Shown: piece by piece, positions 16,890 to 32,134 of the stretch | Layout of the letters: each line of letters begins with the position of its first letter | Position numbering within the stretch: the stretch's first letter is position 1 | Source of the DNA: Enterobacteria phage XTG1 | Sequence record: KT184316.1 | Strand: one strand, 5' to 3' | DNA: 64,000 nucleotides | Notes under the pieces: generated by a model | The model's database searches: none | Told to the model about the DNA's origin: nothing | The model's input: only the letters and a program-made list of their open reading frames with translations | Position numbers and translations under genes: made by a program

Positions 16890-24908
<8,019 letters not shown>

Positions 24909-24910
24909 TA

Positions 24911-26098
24911 ATGGCAGTAGGTGAAATTCAAATTAGTGCCTTGCCTCAAGCAGCCTTACCAATTGACCTTAGTGATATCTTCCATCTTAAACAAGGTATT
25001 GAGGATAAGAGATGCACTCTTGAGCAATTACTTGCTCCACACTCAAGCCTAAGAAATAACCCTCATGGTGTTACTAAAACACAAATTGGTTTAGATAACG
25101 TTATCAATGCTCTTCAGTTAGTTGCTGCAAATAACTTATCAGACGTTACTAATGTAGCTCAGGCAAGAGCAAATCTACAGATTATGTCTTCAGAAGAGGT
25201 TAATAATCTTGTTCAACAGCATATTCAGGACAAGAGCAACCCACATAATACAACTAAGGCACAGGTAGGATTGAGTAATGTTCAGAACTGGACAACATCT
25301 AACCTTTATAACGAAGATGCAGACAAGTACGCTACAGCAAGAGCAGTAAATAACTTGTACAAGGCTGTTCAGGCTTCTTATCCAGTAGGTACTATCCATC
25401 TTTCCATGAACTCTGCAAACCCTTCTACGTATTTAATTTGTGGAGGAACTTGGGAGTTAGTTTCAAAAGGTAGAGCATTGGTTGGTTATGACTCTGACAC
25501 AAGACCAGCAGGTTCTGTATTTGGTGCTTCAACTGTTACTTTGTCAGTTAATAACATGCCTCAACATTCACACTCCGTGTCTCTTAGTGGTGGTGGTCAC
25601 ACTCATAATGCAACTGTGTCAATTTCAGCTTTTGATTATGGAACTAAGACTACCAACTCTTTTGACTATGGAACAAAGACCACTAACACGACTGGTAACC
25701 ACAACCATGTTGGCAGTGGGTCAACAAGTGCTGCTGGTGCTCACAACCACAGATTGACCTATGAATCAGGTGGTGGTTTATCTGAAAGACCTGCAATGGT
25801 TTGGTCTTCAAGAAATGACCAATCATGGTACTCAGCAGATGCTGTCTGTGAAGTCGCTGGTGCTCACAGCCACTCTTTCAGTGTTACCACTAACACAACT
25901 GGTAACCACAACCATACGGTTGGTATTGGTGCTCACAGCCACACAGTTGGTATTGGTTCACATACACACAATGGTACTGTAACAGTTTCTTCTTCTGAAC
26001 ATACGCATAGCGGGAACACTAATAGTGTTGGTGGTGGACAAGCTTTCAACATTGAGCAGCCATCCTTTGTACTGTATGTATGGCAGAGAACAGCTTAA
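24911..26098 (+). CDS. Tail fibre protein 1 with His-x-His repeat C-terminal domain
   Basis: N-terminal repeated NPHGVTKTQIGL / NPHNTTKAQVGL units; C-terminal HSHS, GHTHN, NHNH, AHNH, AHSHS, NHNHT, AHSHT, SHTHN, EHTHS repeats; tandem FDYGTKTTN. Confidence 0.65.
   Translation: MAVGEIQISALPQAALPIDLSDIFHLKQGIEDKRCTLEQLLAPHSSLRNNPHGVTKTQIGLDNVINALQLVAANNLSDVTNVAQARANLQIMSSEEVNNLVQQHIQDKSNPHNTTKAQVGLSNVQNWTTSNLYNEDADKYATARAVNNLYKAVQASYPVGTIHLSMNSANPSTYLICGGTWELVSKGRALVGYDSDTRPAGSVFGASTVTLSVNNMPQHSHSVSLSGGGHTHNATVSISAFDYGTKTTNSFDYGTKTTNTTGNHNHVGSGSTSAAGAHNHRLTYESGGGLSERPAMVWSSRNDQSWYSADAVCEVAGAHSHSFSVTTNTTGNHNHTVGIGAHSHTVGIGSHTHNGTVTVSSSEHTHSGNTNSVGGGQAFNIEQPSFVLYVWQRTA
25630..25686 (+). repeat. 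Tandem direct repeat inside tail fibre 1 (encodes FDYGTKTTN twice)
   Basis: tttgattatggaactaagactaccaac followed by near-identical tttgactatggaacaaagaccactaac. Confidence 0.6.
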
Positions 26099-26107
26099 TT
26101 TCTTTAC

Positions 26108-26128
26108 AGGGGCTTGATAGCCCCTTTT
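26108..26128 (+). terminator. Hairpin terminator between the fibre genes
   Basis: aggggct-tgat-agcccct followed by ttt. Confidence 0.45.
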
Positions 26129-26144
26129 AAGAGGAAAATTTATA

Positions 26145-28529
26145 ATGGCAGATTACAAGTTGAGTGAATTAAACTCAATCGATACAATCCGTTCAGATGA
26201 CCTTCTTCATGTCAGAGTTAAAAAGAGACCTGAAATGCTTGGCGATGAAGACCGTCGAATGACCTATCAAGATTTCTTAGCATCTTTTAAACTTGAGAGA
26301 TTTGTTCAGATTGCTGGTAGCACTATGACAGGTGACTTAGGGATTGTTAAGTTACTTTATGGTGGTAAGGTAGTATTTAACCCAACAGGCTCTTCTGAGA
26401 TTAATATTGGGGATGTTTTAAAGACTTTTAAAATCAACGCAAATGGCCTTAAACTGACTATTGCAGACACTTCAAGGTCGGCAACTGTTTATCATACTCT
26501 GAATAAGCCAAGCCCTAATGAACTTGGGATGAGAACTAATGAAGAGAATGATGCAAGGTATGCAAGACTAGCTATCACAAACACATTCTCTGGAACTCAA
26601 AATATTCAAGGTGATGCTAACTTACTTCGCCTTAGAAACCAAAATGCAAATAATGCACAATATATCGAAGGTGTAAACCTAGATGGCTCGGCTAGATGGT
26701 GGGTTGGTATTGGTAGTAATGGCTCTGACGAAGTAAAGCTGTACAATAACAAATACAACTCAGCCTTGACTGTTGCAAGTAATGTCTCTGTTAATAAGTC
26801 TTTAGCAATCACTGGTCAAGTTCAACCTTCTGACTTCTCTAACTTAGATGCTAGATACTTTACTCAGACAGTAGCTAATCAGAGATTTGCACAGTTAGCT
26901 GCGAATAACAATTTCACTGGCACTAACACGTTTAGCAGAAACCTACTTATTATCAGTGACAGTGCTGCTTTAAGGTTGAAAAATGCAACAACTAGCTCAC
27001 TATTCATTCAGGGTGTTGACTCTCAGAACACTAACAGGTGGTATGTAGGGAACGGGGATAACACAGCCTCTGTGCTGCTACACAACTATGTACACGGTTC
27101 AAATATCAGACTTGATGATGGCTATATCTCAGTCAACCAGAACTTCAGAATCACTGGTCAAGTTCAACCTTCGGATTGGATTAATATTGACTCTAGATAT
27201 ATTCCGGCAGCAACTTTGAGTAACCTACCTAAGCTTAATGTTGCTAACACATTTGTGAATGTGCAAACTATTGTATCAAATAATGAAGGCGTAGTATTAA
27301 GAAACTTAACACAGGGGCAGCCACAATATATCCGTGGTGTTGATACCCAGAATGTATCTAGGTGGTGGGTAGGTGTGGGTGGCACAAATTCTACTGATGT
27401 GGCATTAAACAACAGCTACTCTGGGACTCAAATTACTCTTATGCCTTCAGCGATTAAGGCTAATAAGAACCTAACCATTACTGGTCAAGTTCAACCTTCT
27501 GATTGGTCTAACTTAGATGCTAGATATTTTGTTAAAACTCAGTTATTAAACCAATCCTTAATGACTGTTTCTGTAGATAACCTTGAAAACCCTTCAGGTT
27601 TTAATCTTGGATATTCAGGTTTTGTCAGAAACAATCAGGTTGCTAGTGGACTGAGAGAATTGGCAATTCATGTTGCTCACTCTAATAAGACTGCTGCACA
27701 TGCAAGAGGAATCTCTTTTGTGTATGGCTCAAATGGACTGGCAACATTTACCTATGCCTATGACAAAAATGGTGACTATGCCGGAGAGGCACAGCTTTAC
27801 ACAACTGATTTTAAACCAACCCCTTCAGATATCGGTGCATACACTAAAGCTGAAACTGACCAGAAGATTGCACAGGCAGTAAGTGACTCTACAGACCTTA
27901 ATAAAATCTACCCAGTTGGTATTGTAACGTGGTTTAACAGTAATGTTGACCCTAACACAGCGTTGCCTGGGTTAACTTGGACGTACCTGAATAATGGTGT
28001 TGGTAGAACTATCAGGATTGCAGCAGCAAACGGTTCAGATGTTGCTACAACAGGTGGTTCAGATTCTGTGACGTTAGCTGTTGGTAACTTGCCATCACAC
28101 ACTCATAGTTTCTCTGCTACCACTTCATCTTTTGATTATGGTACGAAGAACACTAATAGTACTGGTGGTCATACTCACTCTGTAAGTGGTACAACAAGTG
28201 CTGCTGGTAACCACGCCCACCACTTAGGTCTGCTATTGGTTAATGGTGGTGATGCTCAGTATGGTTACACAACTGTTAGCAACAGCAAGACAAGAACTCT
28301 TGACTGGCTTGATAGAAAAGATAACAAATTCCCTAACACTAACACAACTGGTAACCATACACACACATGGTCTGGTACTACAAGTAACACTGGTGCTCAC
28401 ACCCACTCTGTAGGTATCGGTGCTCACACTCATACAGTTAGTGGTAACACTGGTGGTACAGGTTCTGGTTCAGCATTCAGTGTTACTAACCAGTTCTACA
28501 AGTTAATGGCTTGGGTAAGAACTGCTTAA
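26145..28529 (+). CDS. Tail fibre protein 2 (794 aa) with three about 90-aa repeats and HxH-rich C-terminal domain
   Basis: Repeats ending ITGQVQPSD(F/W)SNLDARYF; C-terminal HTHSFS, GHTHSVS, NHAHH, NHTHTW, AHTHSV, AHTHTV; shares FDYGTK and terminal W-x-RTA with fibre 1. Confidence 0.65.
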   Translation: MADYKLSELNSIDTIRSDDLLHVRVKKRPEMLGDEDRRMTYQDFLASFKLERFVQIAGSTMTGDLGIVKLLYGGKVVFNPTGSSEINIGDVLKTFKINANGLKLTIADTSRSATVYHTLNKPSPNELGMRTNEENDARYARLAITNTFSGTQNIQGDANLLRLRNQNANNAQYIEGVNLDGSARWWVGIGSNGSDEVKLYNNKYNSALTVASNVSVNKSLAITGQVQPSDFSNLDARYFTQTVANQRFAQLAANNNFTGTNTFSRNLLIISDSAALRLKNATTSSLFIQGVDSQNTNRWYVGNGDNTASVLLHNYVHGSNIRLDDGYISVNQNFRITGQVQPSDWINIDSRYIPAATLSNLPKLNVANTFVNVQTIVSNNEGVVLRNLTQGQPQYIRGVDTQNVSRWWVGVGGTNSTDVALNNSYSGTQITLMPSAIKANKNLTITGQVQPSDWSNLDARYFVKTQLLNQSLMTVSVDNLENPSGFNLGYSGFVRNNQVASGLRELAIHVAHSNKTAAHARGISFVYGSNGLATFTYAYDKNGDYAGEAQLYTTDFKPTPSDIGAYTKAETDQKIAQAVSDSTDLNKIYPVGIVTWFNSNVDPNTALPGLTWTYLNNGVGRTIRIAAANGSDVATTGGSDSVTLAVGNLPSHTHSFSATTSSFDYGTKNTNSTGGHTHSVSGTTSAAGNHAHHLGLLLVNGGDAQYGYTTVSNSKTRTLDWLDRKDNKFPNTNTTGNHTHTWSGTTSNTGAHTHSVGIGAHTHTVSGNTGGTGSGSAFSVTNQFYKLMAWVRTA

Positions 28530-28536
28530 TCCCTTG

Positions 28537-28565
28537 TTGACTGATTGTTAAGATGGTGTTAATAT
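28537..28565 (+). promoter_or_regulatory. Sigma70-like promoter (TTGACT, 17-bp spacer, TAATAT) overlapped by a 9-bp inverted repeat
   Basis: ttgact 28537-28542, 17-nt spacer, taatat 28560-28565; inverted repeat aagatggtg/caccatctt spans the -10. Confidence 0.5.
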
Positions 28566-28608
28566 TCTTTATGGGTATTCTCACCATCTTGGCTGATGAG
28601 GTGATTAA

Positions 28609-28806
28609 ATGCCTACAATCCTAGCAATTCTTCTAAAAAATCTAGGTAGCTTCTTCTGGAAACTCATTTTATCCCTTCTAAGTGAATACATGATTGAGAA
28701 AGTGTTCTTTAGGCTTGCAAGATACCTTGCGAGTAAAACAGACACACCTATTGATGATGAGTTCGTAGATAACTTAGAAAAAGCTTTTAAGGGGGAGAAT
28801 AAATGA
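28609..28806 (+). CDS. Small hydrophobic protein (65 aa), possible membrane/lysis-associated
   Basis: N-terminal hydrophobic segment ILAILLKNLGSFFWKLILSLL; located at end of late module after a promoter. Confidence 0.4.
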   Translation: MPTILAILLKNLGSFFWKLILSLLSEYMIEKVFFRLARYLASKTDTPIDDEFVDNLEKAFKGENK

Positions 28807-29174
28807 AGTGGCTAGAGGAAGCTTTTAAAAATAATATTGGTGCAATTGTAGTTGGTATTTTTAGTGTTATTGGGATGTATACCACCATGCAAGTCTCGGA
28901 TGGTAAGCAAGAAGTGTCTGTCACAACAAAGTTACAGCAGTTAGATAATTATTCCAAAAGTAACTATTCAGCTATTCGTGATTTACAGTCTGACATGAGA
29001 CTGATTCAGCTAGGGATGGAGAACCAGAAAGTTCAGTTAGAGAATGTTAAGGGTGAAAACGCAAAACTTACCAAAACTCTTGATAAATTCTCTGACAGTG
29101 TGAACAATCTGGCTCAATCAGTATCAGCCCTCCAAGCTATTACTGAAAAGAACACAAAGAATACTGAAAGATAA
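28803..29174 (+). CDS. Membrane-anchored coiled-coil protein (123 aa), i-spanin-like architecture
   Basis: N-terminal TM helix IGAIVVGIFSVIGMYTT followed by a polar coiled-coil region; architecture only. Confidence 0.35.
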   Translation: MKWLEEAFKNNIGAIVVGIFSVIGMYTTMQVSDGKQEVSVTTKLQQLDNYSKSNYSAIRDLQSDMRLIQLGMENQKVQLENVKGENAKLTKTLDKFSDSVNNLAQSVSALQAITEKNTKNTER

Positions 29175-29179
29175 AATTT

Positions 29180-29207
29180 AAGGCTCCTTTTTACGGGAGC
29201 CTTTTTT
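29180..29207. terminator. Bidirectional terminator between convergent late and early transcription units
   Basis: aggctcc-tttttacg-ggagcc followed by tttttt; lies between stops of convergent genes at 29174 and 29211. Confidence 0.6.
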
Positions 29208-29210
29208 GTT

Positions 29211-30110
29211 TTACTTGCCTACTGACAGAGGTGCTTCAATCTTCCCTGCATGTTGGTAGTTGTTAATTCCACCAATAAAGTCACTTGCAGTAAGATGTTT
29301 TAAGTCACTTAAAGTGTTAAGCTGTACACCAATCTCAAAAGTAGGTGCATGGAACTCTTCATTGTTCATCAGTTCATAAACCTGCTTCATATGGTTCTGA
29401 TAAATCTGAGTATCTCCAAAGACACCTATCAAGTACCGTGGAGTGTATCCAGTCATCTTGCAAAGAACTTCTAAGATGAAGCCATAAGACGCAATGTTAA
29501 ACGGAAGTCCTAAAAAGGTGTCTACAGAACGCTGATACCATTGCAAATCCACTTCACCTTCATTAGTGATATAAATCTGAAACAGAACATGACAAGGTGC
29601 TAAAGCCATTGAGTTTGCTGCAATATCTGCTGCATTCCAAGCATTAACAAGCATGTAACGGTCTGTGATATCACCCTTCATCTTCGTTACTAAGGTCTCT
29701 AACTGGTCTACAACACAACCATTATGACCTTCGAAGTTTCTCCACTGGACCCCATAGATTCTCCCACCTGCATCTTCTAACCAATCTTGTTCAGAAGAAT
29801 AATTAGAACTTAACCATCGTTTAAAATCATCTGACCAGATAGTCCAGCGTTTCCCATCATTTTCACCCCAAGTACGGTAACGAAGTTCACCAAGTTTATT
29901 CTCACCATTCAGGAACCATAAAGCTTCCCCAATGACTTGCCGTGTAAACACCTGTTTAGATGTTAAGAGCGGGAAACCAGTTCGCATATCAAAACGAAAC
30001 TGAGGTGGAGCAAATGCAGAGATAACATCTCCAGTTCGTGTAGTACGCAGTTCACCAACGGATAAAACATGGTTCAGGATATTTTTGTAACTTGAATCTG
30101 CTTGTGACAT
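29211..30110 (-). CDS. thyA: Thymidylate synthase
   Basis: FPLLTSK, NAWNAADI, LAPCH catalytic Cys, QRSVDTFLGLPFNIASY (Asn retained, consistent with dUMP substrate). Confidence 0.85.
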   Translation of the reverse strand: MSQADSSYKNILNHVLSVGELRTTRTGDVISAFAPPQFRFDMRTGFPLLTSKQVFTRQVIGEALWFLNGENKLGELRYRTWGENDGKRWTIWSDDFKRWLSSNYSSEQDWLEDAGGRIYGVQWRNFEGHNGCVVDQLETLVTKMKGDITDRYMLVNAWNAADIAANSMALAPCHVLFQIYITNEGEVDLQWYQRSVDTFLGLPFNIASYGFILEVLCKMTGYTPRYLIGVFGDTQIYQNHMKQVYELMNNEEFHAPTFEIGVQLNTLSDLKHLTASDFIGGINNYQHAGKIEAPLSVGK

Positions 30111-30111
30111 A

Positions 30112-30657
30112 TCAAAAGTGTCCTTTTACTTGTGGAACATAAATTTCAAAAGTTGCTTTACTATCCTCTGATGGTTTTGACTGTACCTTTGTAAATACAC
30201 GGTTATCATACAGCTTCTCAAAGAAGTTTTCAAAAGGTAAATGCACAGTGGCCTCTTCAGTAACTTTATGGAAGACTGTATGGAACACCACACCAGCATA
30301 CGGTAAAGCATTGACAAGGACACCTGCACCACCAATTACAAAGACATCTTCATCAATAGAGCTATCAAGATACTTCAAAAATGCTCCAAATGACTCTTTA
30401 CTGGCTTTAGCATACATTACATCATCTTTGCCAAAGTCTATACCTAAGTGTGGTACAGAGTTTGTTAAGATGAGGTTTGCACGTTCTGGTAAAGGCTTAC
30501 TCCCCAGAGTCTTGAAAGTCTCATTACCCATCACTACTAAGTTGTTTTTAGTGAGTCTCTTAAACTCTTGCATATCTTGCTTATGTCGAGGCCACGGCAT
30601 ACCAGTCGGTGTACCAAATTCACCGTTTTCACCACTTGCAAATATTAGTTTAATCAT
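30112..30657 (-). CDS. folA: Dihydrofolate reductase
   Basis: MIKLIFA..GENGEFG..GMPW ... VVMGNETFKTLG ... LILTN; adjacent to thyA. Confidence 0.8.
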   Translation of the reverse strand: MIKLIFASGENGEFGTPTGMPWPRHKQDMQEFKRLTKNNLVVMGNETFKTLGSKPLPERANLILTNSVPHLGIDFGKDDVMYAKASKESFGAFLKYLDSSIDEDVFVIGGAGVLVNALPYAGVVFHTVFHKVTEEATVHLPFENFFEKLYDNRVFTKVQSKPSEDSKATFEIYVPQVKGHF

Positions 30658-30914
30658 TTTGTAAACCCTTTCTTAATGAACCAGTTGATGACACTCTTCA
30701 CAACTTTACTACGATGGTAGATAAAATGTGGAGATGGTTGGTATGAACCATAAGCCCAGAAAGCGATAATTTCATTACACCCTGTGCATCGGGTACTTTC
30801 TTCAGCAATATGACCGTTGACTATTTCACTTACCTCACCTTGTAAGTCTGTACACCCACAATGTGGACAACGGATAGGTGTTCCATCAGACTCATAGCAG
30901 TGTTCAATTTTCAT
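30654..30914 (-). CDS. Small zinc-ribbon protein (86 aa)
   Basis: CPHCGC ... CTGC cysteine pairs. Confidence 0.45.
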   Translation of the reverse strand: MKIEHCYESDGTPIRCPHCGCTDLQGEVSEIVNGHIAEESTRCTGCNEIIAFWAYGSYQPSPHFIYHRSKVVKSVINWFIKKGFTK

Positions 30915-31430
30915 CTATTTAACCTCAAAAACTGGCTCAAGAACCAATATAAAGTCTACACAGTCATCTTCTTCATCCAGAATACCATCAAAGTTCTTAG
31001 GAACGAAGTCGAAGAGGCTCATAACAAAACAGTCAGAAGTGACCTTGATAGTTCCTCCCATGTTCTCTACAGTCAACACTGTACGACTTTCTTTTACCTC
31101 CCTCAGAAGATTACCCACAAAGTCATCTAAGAAGTACTTCATCAATGACTTAAAACCTTTAGGATAATCTGTACCAGAGTATGTTTCAATCTGAGGTACA
31201 AGCTTAACATTTATATTGGTCTTTGTTAAGAATGCACTAGAGAACATACTATCAGGTAGCTTACAAACAGTCTTTCCAGTACCTTCATGTTCAATCTCAA
31301 CAAAACCAGCTTCATCGCCACATGTAACTATTTTAAAAGATGCTTCATTCTCATACTGTGAAGCCATAAACTTTTTAAGCATCGTTTTAAGGAAATCTGC
31401 ATGGGCATCTTGTAAGAATATATCAATCAT
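30915..31430 (-). CDS. Hypothetical protein (171 aa)
   Basis: Intact ORF in early operon. Confidence 0.5.
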   Translation of the reverse strand: MIDIFLQDAHADFLKTMLKKFMASQYENEASFKIVTCGDEAGFVEIEHEGTGKTVCKLPDSMFSSAFLTKTNINVKLVPQIETYSGTDYPKGFKSLMKYFLDDFVGNLLREVKESRTVLTVENMGGTIKVTSDCFVMSLFDFVPKNFDGILDEEDDCVDFILVLEPVFEVK

Positions 31431-31443
31431 AGTTAATCACCTA

Positions 31444-31803
31444 TTATGGGAACAGACACTTTATGTCATCGTTTTTAAAAACAAAACTTGTGTAGTTGTG
31501 ACCGTCAACATCCAGCCAAACAGCCTGAACATCTACACCATCAAGATTGTGGTAAAGCTCTTTGATGAAGTGGTCTTTCACAATCTGGCTGCTAGTTGTT
31601 TCCAGCTTAATGTTAGATATTGCTGAACCTACAGCCATATAACCCATGACACGTTTCTTCTCAGTATGCTTAATCTTACCATCTTTGTAAGCCATAATGA
31701 GATTGGAAAGAATCTTCACACCATAATACTTTTCAAGGTGAGTAGGTACGCCATAAAAGCCTAATGCGAAGTTTTCAGAGTGGATAATGTTTTCACGTTT
31801 CAT
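31444..31803 (-). CDS. Hypothetical protein (119 aa)
   Basis: Intact ORF in early operon. Confidence 0.5.
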   Translation of the reverse strand: MKRENIIHSENFALGFYGVPTHLEKYYGVKILSNLIMAYKDGKIKHTEKKRVMGYMAVGSAISNIKLETTSSQIVKDHFIKELYHNLDGVDVQAVWLDVDGHNYTSFVFKNDDIKCLFP

Positions 31804-31804
31804 A

Positions 31805-32134
31805 TTAATCTGCCAACCTTAAATTGAAATTAACACCAAATTTTTCACATACTTCCAACATATACTCAAGGGAGACGTTACCAGTGAGATGGATTATGTT
31901 GGACACACGAGCCTGAGAGATACCACAAATTTTAGCAACTTGCTCTTGAGAAAGACCTCTGGATTTAATCTCTCTCTTAAAACGATGTGCAACGAAGTCT
32001 CTCATTTCGTCTACATCCATTGGACAAATATAACTCTCCATTTCAGCCTCTCTATCAGCCTCCCAATCATCTTGTGGAGCATAAGGGTCAAAAACCTCAT
32101 TCATCTTTCTTCTTCCGTTTGCGTGAAGTATCAA
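31805..32134 (-). CDS. Helix-turn-helix DNA-binding protein (XRE-like)
   Basis: C-terminal LSQEQVAKICGISQARVSNI helix-turn-helix-like segment. Confidence 0.55.
   Translation of the reverse strand: MILHANGRRKMNEVFDPYAPQDDWEADREAEMESYICPMDVDEMRDFVAHRFKREIKSRGLSQEQVAKICGISQARVSNIIHLTGNVSLEYMLEVCEKFGVNFNLRLAD

Follow-up and report, generated by a model that had tools for sequence, protein, structure and literature searches.

A 64,000-nucleotide (nt) stretch of DNA from Enterobacteria phage XTG1 (sequence record KT184316.1), here called the window, contains two adjacent open reading frames (ORFs) on the + strand, at positions 24911-26098 (395 amino acids, aa) and 26145-28529 (794 aa); all positions are window coordinates. 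These ORFs, referred to as fibre 1 and fibre 2, are separated by a gap of 46 nt. A sequence-only reading of the window had proposed that both encode tail fibres, and this identification was upheld by matches to PHROG tail fibre families (fibre 1 to phrog_2097 with an E value of 1.6e-136; fibre 2 to phrog_4277 with an E value of 0 over its full length), by a 98% DNA identity to annotated Felixounavirus fibre genes and by a gene order and gene sizes like those of phage Bas63. The region could be aligned over 100% of its length with the genomes of LF82P3 (98.3% DNA identity) and KhF3 (98.0%), in which the fibre genes are annotated as tail fibres, and KhF1 was a further Felixounavirus genome with 98% DNA identity to the region. 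A total of 239 phage records matched the region, nearly all of them from Felix O1-like phages of Escherichia, Salmonella and Shigella, and related genomes covered 72 to 100% of it at 84 to 98% DNA identity. The analyses described below indicated that the two genes very probably encode the side tail fibre pair of a Felix O1-like myophage of E. coli (Felixounavirus), with gp37-type tips and with parts that are exchanged as cassettes.

Two fibre genes and their gp37-type tips

The ORFs leading up to and including the fibre genes (489, 285, 100, 395 and 794 aa) followed the order of gp23 to gp27 in Bas63. In that phage, gp23 (489 aa) and gp24 (285 aa) are wedge proteins 2 and 1, gp25 is the long tail fibre (LTF) platform, which is the attachment point of the long fibre, and gp26 and gp27 were assigned by cryo-electron microscopy (cryo-EM) as a 430-Å short tail fibre (STF) and a 630-Å LTF, respectively, both of which are described as having a collar, a His-x-His (HxH) needle and a head tip (PMC12609058). 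The corresponding pairs are gp52 and gp53 of phage Sf14 (391 and 792 aa), both with a "Yes" in the last column of the protein table (PMC11821841), and gp74 and gp75 of VpaE1, which are shown in Figure 5 in a virion protein analysis and for which homology to gp37 had already been remarked upon (PMC4690856). Based on the shared gene order and near-equal sizes, fibre 1 was assigned as the STF, the orthologue of Bas63 gp26, Sf14 gp52 and VpaE1 gp74, and fibre 2 as the LTF, the orthologue of Bas63 gp27, Sf14 gp53 and VpaE1 gp75; the orthology with Bas63 was drawn from synteny, sizes and the published description. The 100-aa protein encoded directly 5' of fibre 1 was assigned as a putative LTF platform by synteny.

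Virion presence, fibre lengths and attachment sites were taken from published work on orthologues. The orthologous fibre proteins are present in virions according to the virion protein analyses of VpaE1 and Felix O1 (PMC4690856), and trimer models have been fitted to cryo-EM density for the Bas63 and Sf14 fibres (PMC12609058, PMC11821841). The architecture of these fibres was already known: it had been published for orthologues in 2015, and cryo-EM resolved it in 2025. Homology, motif register, the map of variability and the limits of the cassettes were determined in the present analysis, which adds a coordinate-level domain map (Table 1), the cassette boundaries and the sharing of the window LTF head across phage subfamilies.

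A BLASTP comparison of fibre 1 with fibre 2 detected 35% identity over 233 C-terminal residues (E value of 1e-22), and a faint N-terminal pattern, ...D.(F/L)H...ED(K/R)R(C/M)T...(L/F)LA, was present in both. This pattern maps to the baseplate-binding domain, whose structure was reported to be conserved in the Bas63 fibres (PMC12609058), and an N-terminal ED(K/R)-type motif has been described for both fibres of Sf14 (PMC11821841). As fibre 1 and fibre 2 are related at both ends, they were considered to be paralogues. Their plan, consisting of an N-terminal domain with an ED(K/R)(R/K)(C/M)T motif, helix-turn motifs, beta repeats in the LTF, a collar, an HxH needle and a head, was shared with Bas63/Sf14-type fibres, and allele content was the only difference from other Felixounavirus pairs, the tail fibre genes of Felix O1 included. 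The STF of XTG1 has nine HxH motifs compared to seven reported for Bas63, and the motif beside the LTF head is HAHH rather than the HHxH reported for that phage (PMC12609058).

Table 1. Positions of the fibre domains and neighbouring features in the window (HMM, hidden Markov model; TRF, Tandem Repeats Finder)
Feature	Position	Strand	Remarks
489-aa and 285-aa ORFs upstream of the fibre genes			Baseplate_J protein (489 aa) and baseplate protein (285 aa); Pfam Baseplate_J, DUF2612, PHROG baseplate
100-aa protein directly 5' of fibre 1	24606..24908	+	PHROG 4141, E 3e-62; positional counterpart of Bas63 gp25
Fibre 1 N-terminal baseplate-binding region and helix-turn shaft	24911..25330	+	EDKRCT at aa 31-36
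Fibre 1 collar, T4 gp10 C-terminal-like	25331..25561	+	About aa 141-217; Pfam Gp10_C, E 1.6e-18
Fibre 1 ascending needle strand	25562..25750	+	aa 218-280; HxH at aa 219, 230, 264, 278; two FDYGTK decapeptides
FDYGTK tandem	25628..25687	+	(A/S)FDYGTKTTN x2; TRF period 30, 2.0 copies, 86% matches
Fibre 1 head	25751..25864	+	aa 281-318; presumed receptor-contacting tip; hypervariable
Fibre 1 descending needle and C-terminal return	25865..26095	+	HxH at aa 319, 333, 342, 351, 364; ends ...YVWQRTA
Hairpin in the inter-fibre gap	26108..26125	+	AGGGGCT-TGAT-AGCCCCT, then TTTT; fold energy -16.5 kcal/mol
Fibre 2 N-terminal baseplate-binding region and first beta domain	26145..26564	+	EDRRMT at aa 35-40
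Fibre 2 repeat 1	26577..26882	+	aa 145-246; repeat HMM E 2.6e-42; body aa 141-220; conserved junction ITGQVQPSDFSNLDARYF
Fibre 2 repeat 2	26922..27224	+	aa 260-360; repeat HMM E 3.3e-39; junction ITGQVQPSDWINIDSRYI
Fibre 2 repeat 3	27243..27551	+	aa 367-469; repeat HMM E 8.8e-42; junction ITGQVQPSDWSNLDARYF
Fibre 2 distal variable domain	27552..27824	+	aa 470-560; 37-58% mean identity; weak Pfam gp37_C match
Fibre 2 collar	27825..28094	+	aa 561-650; conserved, 87-94% mean identity; aligns to fibre 1 collar
Fibre 2 needle-tip and head cassette	28123..28438	+	SFDYGTK box to GIGAHTHTV box; head proper aa 693-737, 28221-28355
Fibre 2 descending needle and C-terminal return	28356..28526	+	HxH at aa 738, 752, 761; ends ...LMAWVRTA
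Promoter-like TTGACT-17-TAATAT	28537-28598		Between fibre 2 stop and 65-aa ORF; -10 inside inverted repeat
Small ORF of 65 aa 3' of fibre 2	28609-28806	+	PHROG 402, family with no assigned function
Small ORF of 123 aa 3' of fibre 2	28803-29174	+	PHROG 4038, family with no assigned function

As the sequence-only reading had stated, both C-termini are rich in HxH motifs (its examples AHSHS, NHNHT, AHTHS and NHAHH were all found), and the two proteins share the FDYGTK motif and a W-x-RTA end. Nine HxH motifs were detected in fibre 1 (Table 1) and six in fibre 2, where the three of the descending needle are preceded by those at aa 652, 676 and 690, the last in the form HAHH. These whole-protein counts were never reached in 5,000 composition-preserving shuffles, for which the means were 1.4 and 0.5 for fibres 1 and 2, respectively. 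A phmmer search of the PDB matched both fibres to the T4 gp37 tip (2XGF), with E values of 1.1e-26 for fibre 1 (aa 146-367 against chain residues 18-228) and 2e-19 for fibre 2 (aa 647-773). This structure of the receptor-binding tip was reportedly described by Bartual et al. in 2010 in PNAS. All seven of the T4 HxH motifs were in register in fibre 1 and six of the seven in fibre 2, and the two surplus motifs of fibre 1 were located near the collar. In T4, the HxH motifs build an iron-stapled needle, and it is a small head, flanked by the ascending and the descending HxH set, that touches the receptor. The hypervariable segments of both XTG1 fibres fell exactly between the two HxH sets. The match to 2XGF and the register of the motifs argue for a T4-type metal-binding tip in both fibres, as had been proposed, with the refinement that the motifs were assigned to the needle and receptor contact to the head between them.

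Homology to T4 gp37 extended through the collar, needle and head, and the putative head of the XTG1 fibres lies between two HxH sets, as in T4. The tandem decapeptides of T4 (DLGTKTTSS and FDYGTKGTNS) and its GIGAHTHTV box were also shared with the XTG1 fibres. The C-terminus is ...IVRLA in T4 and ...WQRTA or ...WVRTA in XTG1, where it would likewise return to the collar. In contrast to T4, where the tip is carried on a four-protein fibre (gp34-35-36-37), the tip in XTG1 is part of a single-protein fibre, and the XTG1 collars are only ∼20% identical to that of T4 and have an extra gp10-type (L/M)PxHxH motif. Conservation within the needle was examined in 58 fibre 1 homologues with identities down to 40%. 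Residues H230, H232, H319, H321, H351 and H353 were invariant, as were W391 and R393, while H219, H221, H278 and H280 were conserved in at least 90% of sequences. An AlphaFold2 (AF2) monomer model of fibre 1, made from a 58-sequence alignment, had a mean predicted local distance difference test (pLDDT) score of 65, with values of 86 to 89 for the collar and <50 for the head. Helices were predicted in the N-terminal and shaft region, and long strands at aa 222-241 and 351-369, fitting an out-and-back topology.

The shaft of fibre 1 contained two NPHxxTKxQxGLxNV units, at aa 49-65 (25055-25105) and aa 109-125 (25235-25285), which are absent from the sequence-only reading. Helix-turn motifs of the NLSDV...ARANL type were also observed in this shaft. 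The adjoining collar matched Pfam PF21939 (Gp10_C) with 68.4 bits, above the gathering threshold of 27, and the collar of fibre 2 scored 22.1 bits, below this cut-off. PDB sequence matches of the fibre 1 collar included 2FKK and 5HX2, and a Foldseek search with the fibre 1 model matched 2FKK with a probability of 0.98.

A tandem duplication of the FDYGTK motif in fibre 1 had been noted and was present in the ascending strand, but the claimed unit of 27 bp was wrong, as the period is 30 bp and encodes the 10-aa units AFDYGTKTTN and SFDYGTKTTN. The two copies were identical at 25 of 30 bases, and four of the five differences were synonymous. A real 27-bp tandem was detected by TRF elsewhere in fibre 1, at 25900-25970, and encodes xHxHTVGIG units. 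Two copies of the FDYGTK unit were found in most fibre 1 orthologues of 29 relatives, three copies in four and four copies in three; gp37 has two such decapeptides in T4 and three in the T4-like phage SHBML-50-1. The number of HxH motifs varied together with the FDYGTK copy number, with 7 to 9 motifs per STF and 4 to 7 per LTF among relatives. Because the tandem is present throughout the orthologues and the HxH count covaries with it, the tandem was considered to be an old needle unit of variable copy number and not the result of recent slippage. Two alternative-frame ORFs within fibre 1 (25482-25757 and 25761-25982 on the + strand) were rejected as genes and considered to be low-complexity read-throughs of the repeat region.

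Three repeats had also been reported in fibre 2. All three were detected, but not with the proposed length of ∼90 aa: the core is ∼102 aa and the period 107 to 115 aa, with DNA spacings of 342 and 327 nt. The proposed ending, ITGQVQPSD(F/W)SNLDARYF, was correct for repeats 1 and 3 but not for repeat 2, whose ending is given in Table 1. Pairwise identities between the repeats were 41 to 46% (z = 22 to 30 compared to shuffles), and three stretches of fibre 2 matched Pfam PF20744 (gp37_trimer), with an E value of 3.3e-78 and 258.3 bits against a cut-off of 21.7. Repeat 2 could be aligned to residues 348-441 of T7 gp17 (4A0T/7BOZ), a region ahead of the T7 tip, and the T4 gp34 rod (5NXH) has been likened to gp37_trimer-type repeats (PMC12609058). 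Compared to these proteins, fibre 2 of XTG1 is distinguished by a tandem array of three copies and two further, more diverged beta domains, by strongly conserved junctions and by hypervariable bodies.

Cassette exchange in the fibres of related phages

In order to map variability, both fibres were taken from 29 related viral contigs (designated by L-numbers) and examined in one MAFFT alignment of 28 fibre 2 and 30 fibre 1 sequences, with alleles defined as single-linkage clusters at 80% identity. A single allele was found for the N-terminal region of each fibre, with mean identities to the window of at least 87% across relatives for fibre 1 and of 87 to 95% for fibre 2. Identity to the window was 0.87 to 0.99 in aa 1-200 of fibre 1, which comprise the N-terminal region and the collar. 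The lowest mean identities were observed in the heads, being 0.19 to 0.32 for aa 281-320 of fibre 1 and 0.20 to 0.28 for aa 701-740 of fibre 2. A periodic pattern was detected in fibre 2, with conserved junctions (aa 221-258, 336-360 and 445-465) and values of 0.37 to 0.58 in the bodies and the distal domain (aa 466-560). Selection hits have been reported at aa 497 and 534 of the long fibre of a relative, that is, in the distal domain (PMC6669636). Among the 28 LTFs there were 10, 15 and 16 alleles of bodies 1, 2 and 3, respectively, 14 of the distal domain and 12 of the head, as compared to 4 of the collar and 1 of the N-terminal region. The head of fibre 1 had nine alleles in 30 sequences, and the window allele was confined to Felixounavirus records (n = 31).

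The alleles of fibre 2 combined almost freely, and all four combinations were seen for several pairs of positions. The body 1 allele of the window recurred at 86 to 100% identity in L011, L012, L014, L026 and L028, whose other cassettes all differed; the body 2 allele was found in L010 and L016, the body 3 allele in L002 and L019, and the head allele only in L001 to L003. Identities at the same position were bimodal, being either ∼30 to 40% or >90%. Breakpoints of megablast alignments with close relatives coincided with the junction motifs; for L001, the DNA identity was 96% up to 26573, after which similarity was abruptly lost and then regained at junction motifs. One body allele was present at position 1 in L021 and at position 3 in L028 (90% aa identity over 79 residues), which suggests occasional ectopic exchange via the repeated junction motif. 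The bimodal identities, the recurrence of alleles in otherwise different fibres and the location of breakpoints at junctions indicated cassette exchange rather than drift. The sequence-only reading had regarded this locus as a likely hotspot for recombination, and the relatives did show replacement of cassettes with sharp edges at conserved motif boxes. Variability was thus limited to the heads and to the repeat bodies and distal domain of fibre 2, which behaved as freely recombined cassettes, and this is a new result for XTG1 and its relatives. In two relatives fibre 2 was irregular, with an ORF of only 541 aa lacking an HxH tip in L013 and no single long ORF found in L015; such irregularities may be due to misassembly, frameshifting or interruption of the gene.

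The boundaries of the head cassette were examined by comparison with T4-like phages. The head of fibre 2 in the window was detected in 37 phage records, which included five T4-like phages and one other phage at only 49% identity. A tblastn search located it in gp37 of the T4-like phages SHBML-50-1, AV122, BYEP01, sutha and N2. Positions 28123-28438 matched gp37 of Tequatrovirus SHBML-50-1 over 316 nt at 84.2% identity (blastn, E value of 8e-98), while the flanks were unalignable, and sliding identity rose from ∼0.47 to 0.77-0.97 at 28129 and fell after 28428. The edges of the shared segment were the FDYGTK box and the GIGAHTHTV box. A second case was provided by the LTF of L005, which carries a T4 gp37 cassette at ∼92% aa identity with identical edges. 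As the cassette edges are at the FDYGTK and His boxes, the FDYGTK motif was considered to be the left junction of a mobile cassette of ∼100 aa (∼300 nt).

Head sharing was also seen within single phages, between STF and LTF. L012, L014 and L018 each have the same head on both fibres, and in L018 the two fibre genes are 91% identical over 200 nt, a stretch that starts at the FDYGTK box and ends at the first His box beyond the head. The two heads of the window itself are unrelated alleles. Recent gene conversion between the window fibres was rejected, the best mutual DNA match being 81 nt at 75%. The GC content of the tips was 0.42 to 0.475, compared to ∼0.38 in the flanks; a foreign origin was set aside as the cause, and the difference was attributed to the content of Gly, His and Thr codons.

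The head cassette boundaries fit the idea of recombination at His boxes that Tétart et al. reportedly put forward for the adhesins of T-even phages in J Mol Biol in 1998. In both systems, short motifs encoding GxHxH flank divergent segments and form the ends of the exchanged segments. The XTG1-type system differs in that exchange takes place across two subfamilies, Ounavirinae and Tevenvirinae, as well as between the paralogous fibres of one genome, that the left boundary is the FDYGTK box and that the specificity segment is the gp37 head and not the gp38 adhesin.

Proposed assembly of the fibres and alternative explanations

A model for the assembly and variation of these fibres is proposed. 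Each fibre would be a homotrimer whose conserved N-terminal domain docks to the baseplate, fibre 1 at the wedge and fibre 2 at the putative LTF platform protein encoded just upstream. In fibre 2, length would be provided by three homologous domains of ∼102 aa (gp37_trimer) inserted between anchor and collar, giving five beta domains in all, with the conserved ITGQVQPSD.SNLDARYF junctions acting as helix-turn separators. From the globular collar, each chain would run along an outgoing needle strand to a small distal head and then back to the collar, and the C-terminus (...W-x-RTA) would therefore adjoin the collar. The FDYGTK decapeptides may serve as structural spacers of the outgoing strand, and the HxH motifs of three chains would form axial octahedral metal sites (occupied by Fe2+ in T4) that staple a six-stranded needle. 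Receptor specificity would reside in the head and not in the histidines; the receptor is the lipopolysaccharide (LPS) core for the Felix O1-type phage group, and may be so for XTG1. Homologous recombination would cross over at the FDYGTK box, at the His box (GIGAHxHTV) and at the junction motifs; through these conserved boxes, heads and bodies would be exchanged from one Felixounavirus to another, from one fibre to the other within a phage, and with T4-like gp37.

Several observations weigh against this interpretation. A Foldseek search of the PDB with the fibre 1 monomer yielded no match at an E value of ≤0.001 and did not retrieve 2XGF, with only weak matches to gp10 and C24 being listed. 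The trimer and metal sites of the XTG1 fibres are deduced by analogy, the sole model being of a single chain. The number of HxH motifs differs from that of T4 by two more in fibre 1 and one fewer in fibre 2, so that any count of metal sites is a guess. The allele counts depend on the single MAFFT alignment of 28 to 30 sequences and on single linkage at 80%. Finally, folding of T4 gp37 needs gp38 and gp57A, and no homologue of gp38 (SHBML-50-1 query) or gp57A (T4 query) was detected in the window or in complete KhF3 by tblastn and phmmer searches for sequence homologues (best E value of 0.3). The chaperone dependence of T4 is thus a property with no match in the sequence, and folding of these tips therefore cannot follow the T4 route exactly. 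No Mu-type fibre chaperones were found by the authors of the Sf14 study (PMC11821841).

The gp10-like collar raised the possibility that fibre 1 is a baseplate wedge or pin protein resembling T4 gp10, with a His-rich tail of purely structural function. Gp10_C was the sole above-threshold Pfam match of this protein, and its best fold matches and some of its PDB matches were also to gp10. This similarity is, however, limited to the collar (aa 144-220) and is far weaker than the match to the gp37 tip; furthermore, a hypervariable head would be expected of a receptor-binding tip and not of a wedge protein, and Bas63 gp26 and Sf14 gp52 were observed by cryo-EM as 430-Å fibres along the sheath (PMC12609058, PMC11821841). 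A gp10-like role was therefore regarded as highly improbable. Relaxed constraint and drift on tolerant beta-helix surfaces is another explanation, in this case for the variability of the fibre 2 bodies; it is one of three options raised by the Bas63 authors (PMC12609058), and the junctions may simply be more constrained. The two classes of identity at the same position, the identical alleles in otherwise different fibres with all four combinations at several position pairs, the abrupt loss and recovery of similarity in L001 and the allele occupying different positions in L021 and L028 all argue against drift, which appears unlikely.

Two further explanations concern the division of labour between the fibres. 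One is a T4-like division, in which the LTF scans reversibly and the STF binds a second LPS epitope irreversibly and triggers contraction, so that the two heads recognize two structures. The two unrelated head alleles of the window are in accordance with such a division; occupancy of the LTF is variable and that of the STF constant in Bas63, for which T4-like behaviour was proposed (PMC12609058), and the Sf14 authors proposed binding to the outer core by at least one of the fibres, the partner of the other being unclear (PMC11821841). The presence of essentially one head on both fibres in L012, L014 and L018 is evidence against an obligatory requirement for two receptors, and the STF is a shortened LTF in structure and is not gp12-like. 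We place this division at slightly under an even chance. The other explanation is that the fibres are alternative adhesins which widen the host range, either being sufficient on its cognate host. The STF and LTF heads assort independently, as exemplified by L004 with the window STF head and a different LTF head, and a broad host range is a known trait of Felix O1-type phages. A phage whose STF and LTF share one head would, however, have nothing to gain, and the retention of both fibres in all relatives examined except L013 and L015 suggests that both are needed; use as alternative adhesins is possible but rather doubtful.

Programmed switching was also considered. The invertible G segment of Mu and C segment of P1 and the diversity-generating retroelements are known sources of programmed tail fibre variation. 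No flanking inverted repeats of >25 nt were detected in 24000-29500, the longest being 16 to 25 nt with 74 to 100% complementarity and scattered, and an invertible segment had no support from such short, scattered repeats. No invertase or reverse transcriptase was present among the ORFs listed for 22000-32000, although no search was aimed at these enzymes. The outcome of invertible segments and retroelements, namely alternative receptor specificities, would be the same, but the variation observed here is between genomes and is attributable to ordinary recombination.

A broader proposal, which we offer tentatively and hold to be somewhat less than evenly balanced, is that these fibres form a combinatorial system. 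Three linker boxes would act as shared junctions, heads of ∼100 aa would move between STF, LTF and T4-like gp37, bodies of ∼80 aa would be reshuffled and now and then shift to another position, the beta domains of the LTF would constitute a second selected surface and the tips would fold without chaperones. If this is true, diversifying selection would act on the LTF beta domains, whose variability the Bas63 study left without an explanation (PMC12609058), as on a second, lateral surface for host recognition or evasion of defences, and T4-type tips folding without gp38 and gp57A would provide a chaperone-free chassis for retargeting. How a T4-identical tip (VpaE1 type) or a T4-like tip (the window) folds where no homologue of gp38 or gp57A is detectable is a question that can be tested. 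Felix O1-type fibres determine host range, and phages of this type find application in phage therapy and in diagnostics for Salmonella and E. coli; the edges of the ∼300-nt cassettes, at the FDYGTK and His boxes, are natural splice points for retargeting them.

Intergenic elements and neighbouring genes

The 46-nt gap between the fibre genes contains a hairpin followed by a T-run (Table 1). Among 27 relatives for which a spacer was listed, the stem was kept and the loop was variable, and the T-run was absent in the most distant relatives (L020, L022, L027 and L029). This hairpin was not called by a consensus terminator scan; it could terminate transcription weakly or affect mRNA stability, and in this way set the proportion of STF to LTF.

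A second element, at 28537-28598, combines the promoter-like sequence with an inverted repeat of 9 to 12 bp (AAGATGGTG...CACCATCTT) which encloses the -10 and has a fold energy of -28 to -33 kcal/mol. Hardly any variation in this element was seen among the relatives, even the most distant ones. From its sequence it looks like a regulated promoter/operator or an RNA element ahead of the downstream small genes. An Rfam search over 24000-29500 produced one sub-threshold match, at the terminator at 29180, and none for 28537-28598.

Next come the two small ORFs and, after them, a bidirectional terminator (29180-29203). In the 123-aa protein, a hydrophobic segment at the N-terminus is followed by a coiled coil, and the matches of this protein were limited to weak coiled-coil and spanin-like ones; nearby gp55 of Sf14 is listed as "holin or lysozyme" with a "Yes" in the last column of the table (PMC11821841). 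These ORFs occupy the usual position of fibre chaperones, but no informative family match supports such a role.

A 10-nt "cos site" is annotated in the long-fibre gene of KhF3 (KT184315.1, 5330-5339; L031, 5371-5380; ∼27781-27790 in the window) and looks like a bare motif match. The annotations of "attP" and "StbAB binding sites" in the KhF3 record likewise look like bare motif matches and were not taken as evidence. Downstream, the - strand carries genes for thymidylate synthase (299 aa) and for dihydrofolate reductase (181 aa) at 29211-30657; these are convergent with the fibre operon, an organisation typical of Felix O1-type phages.

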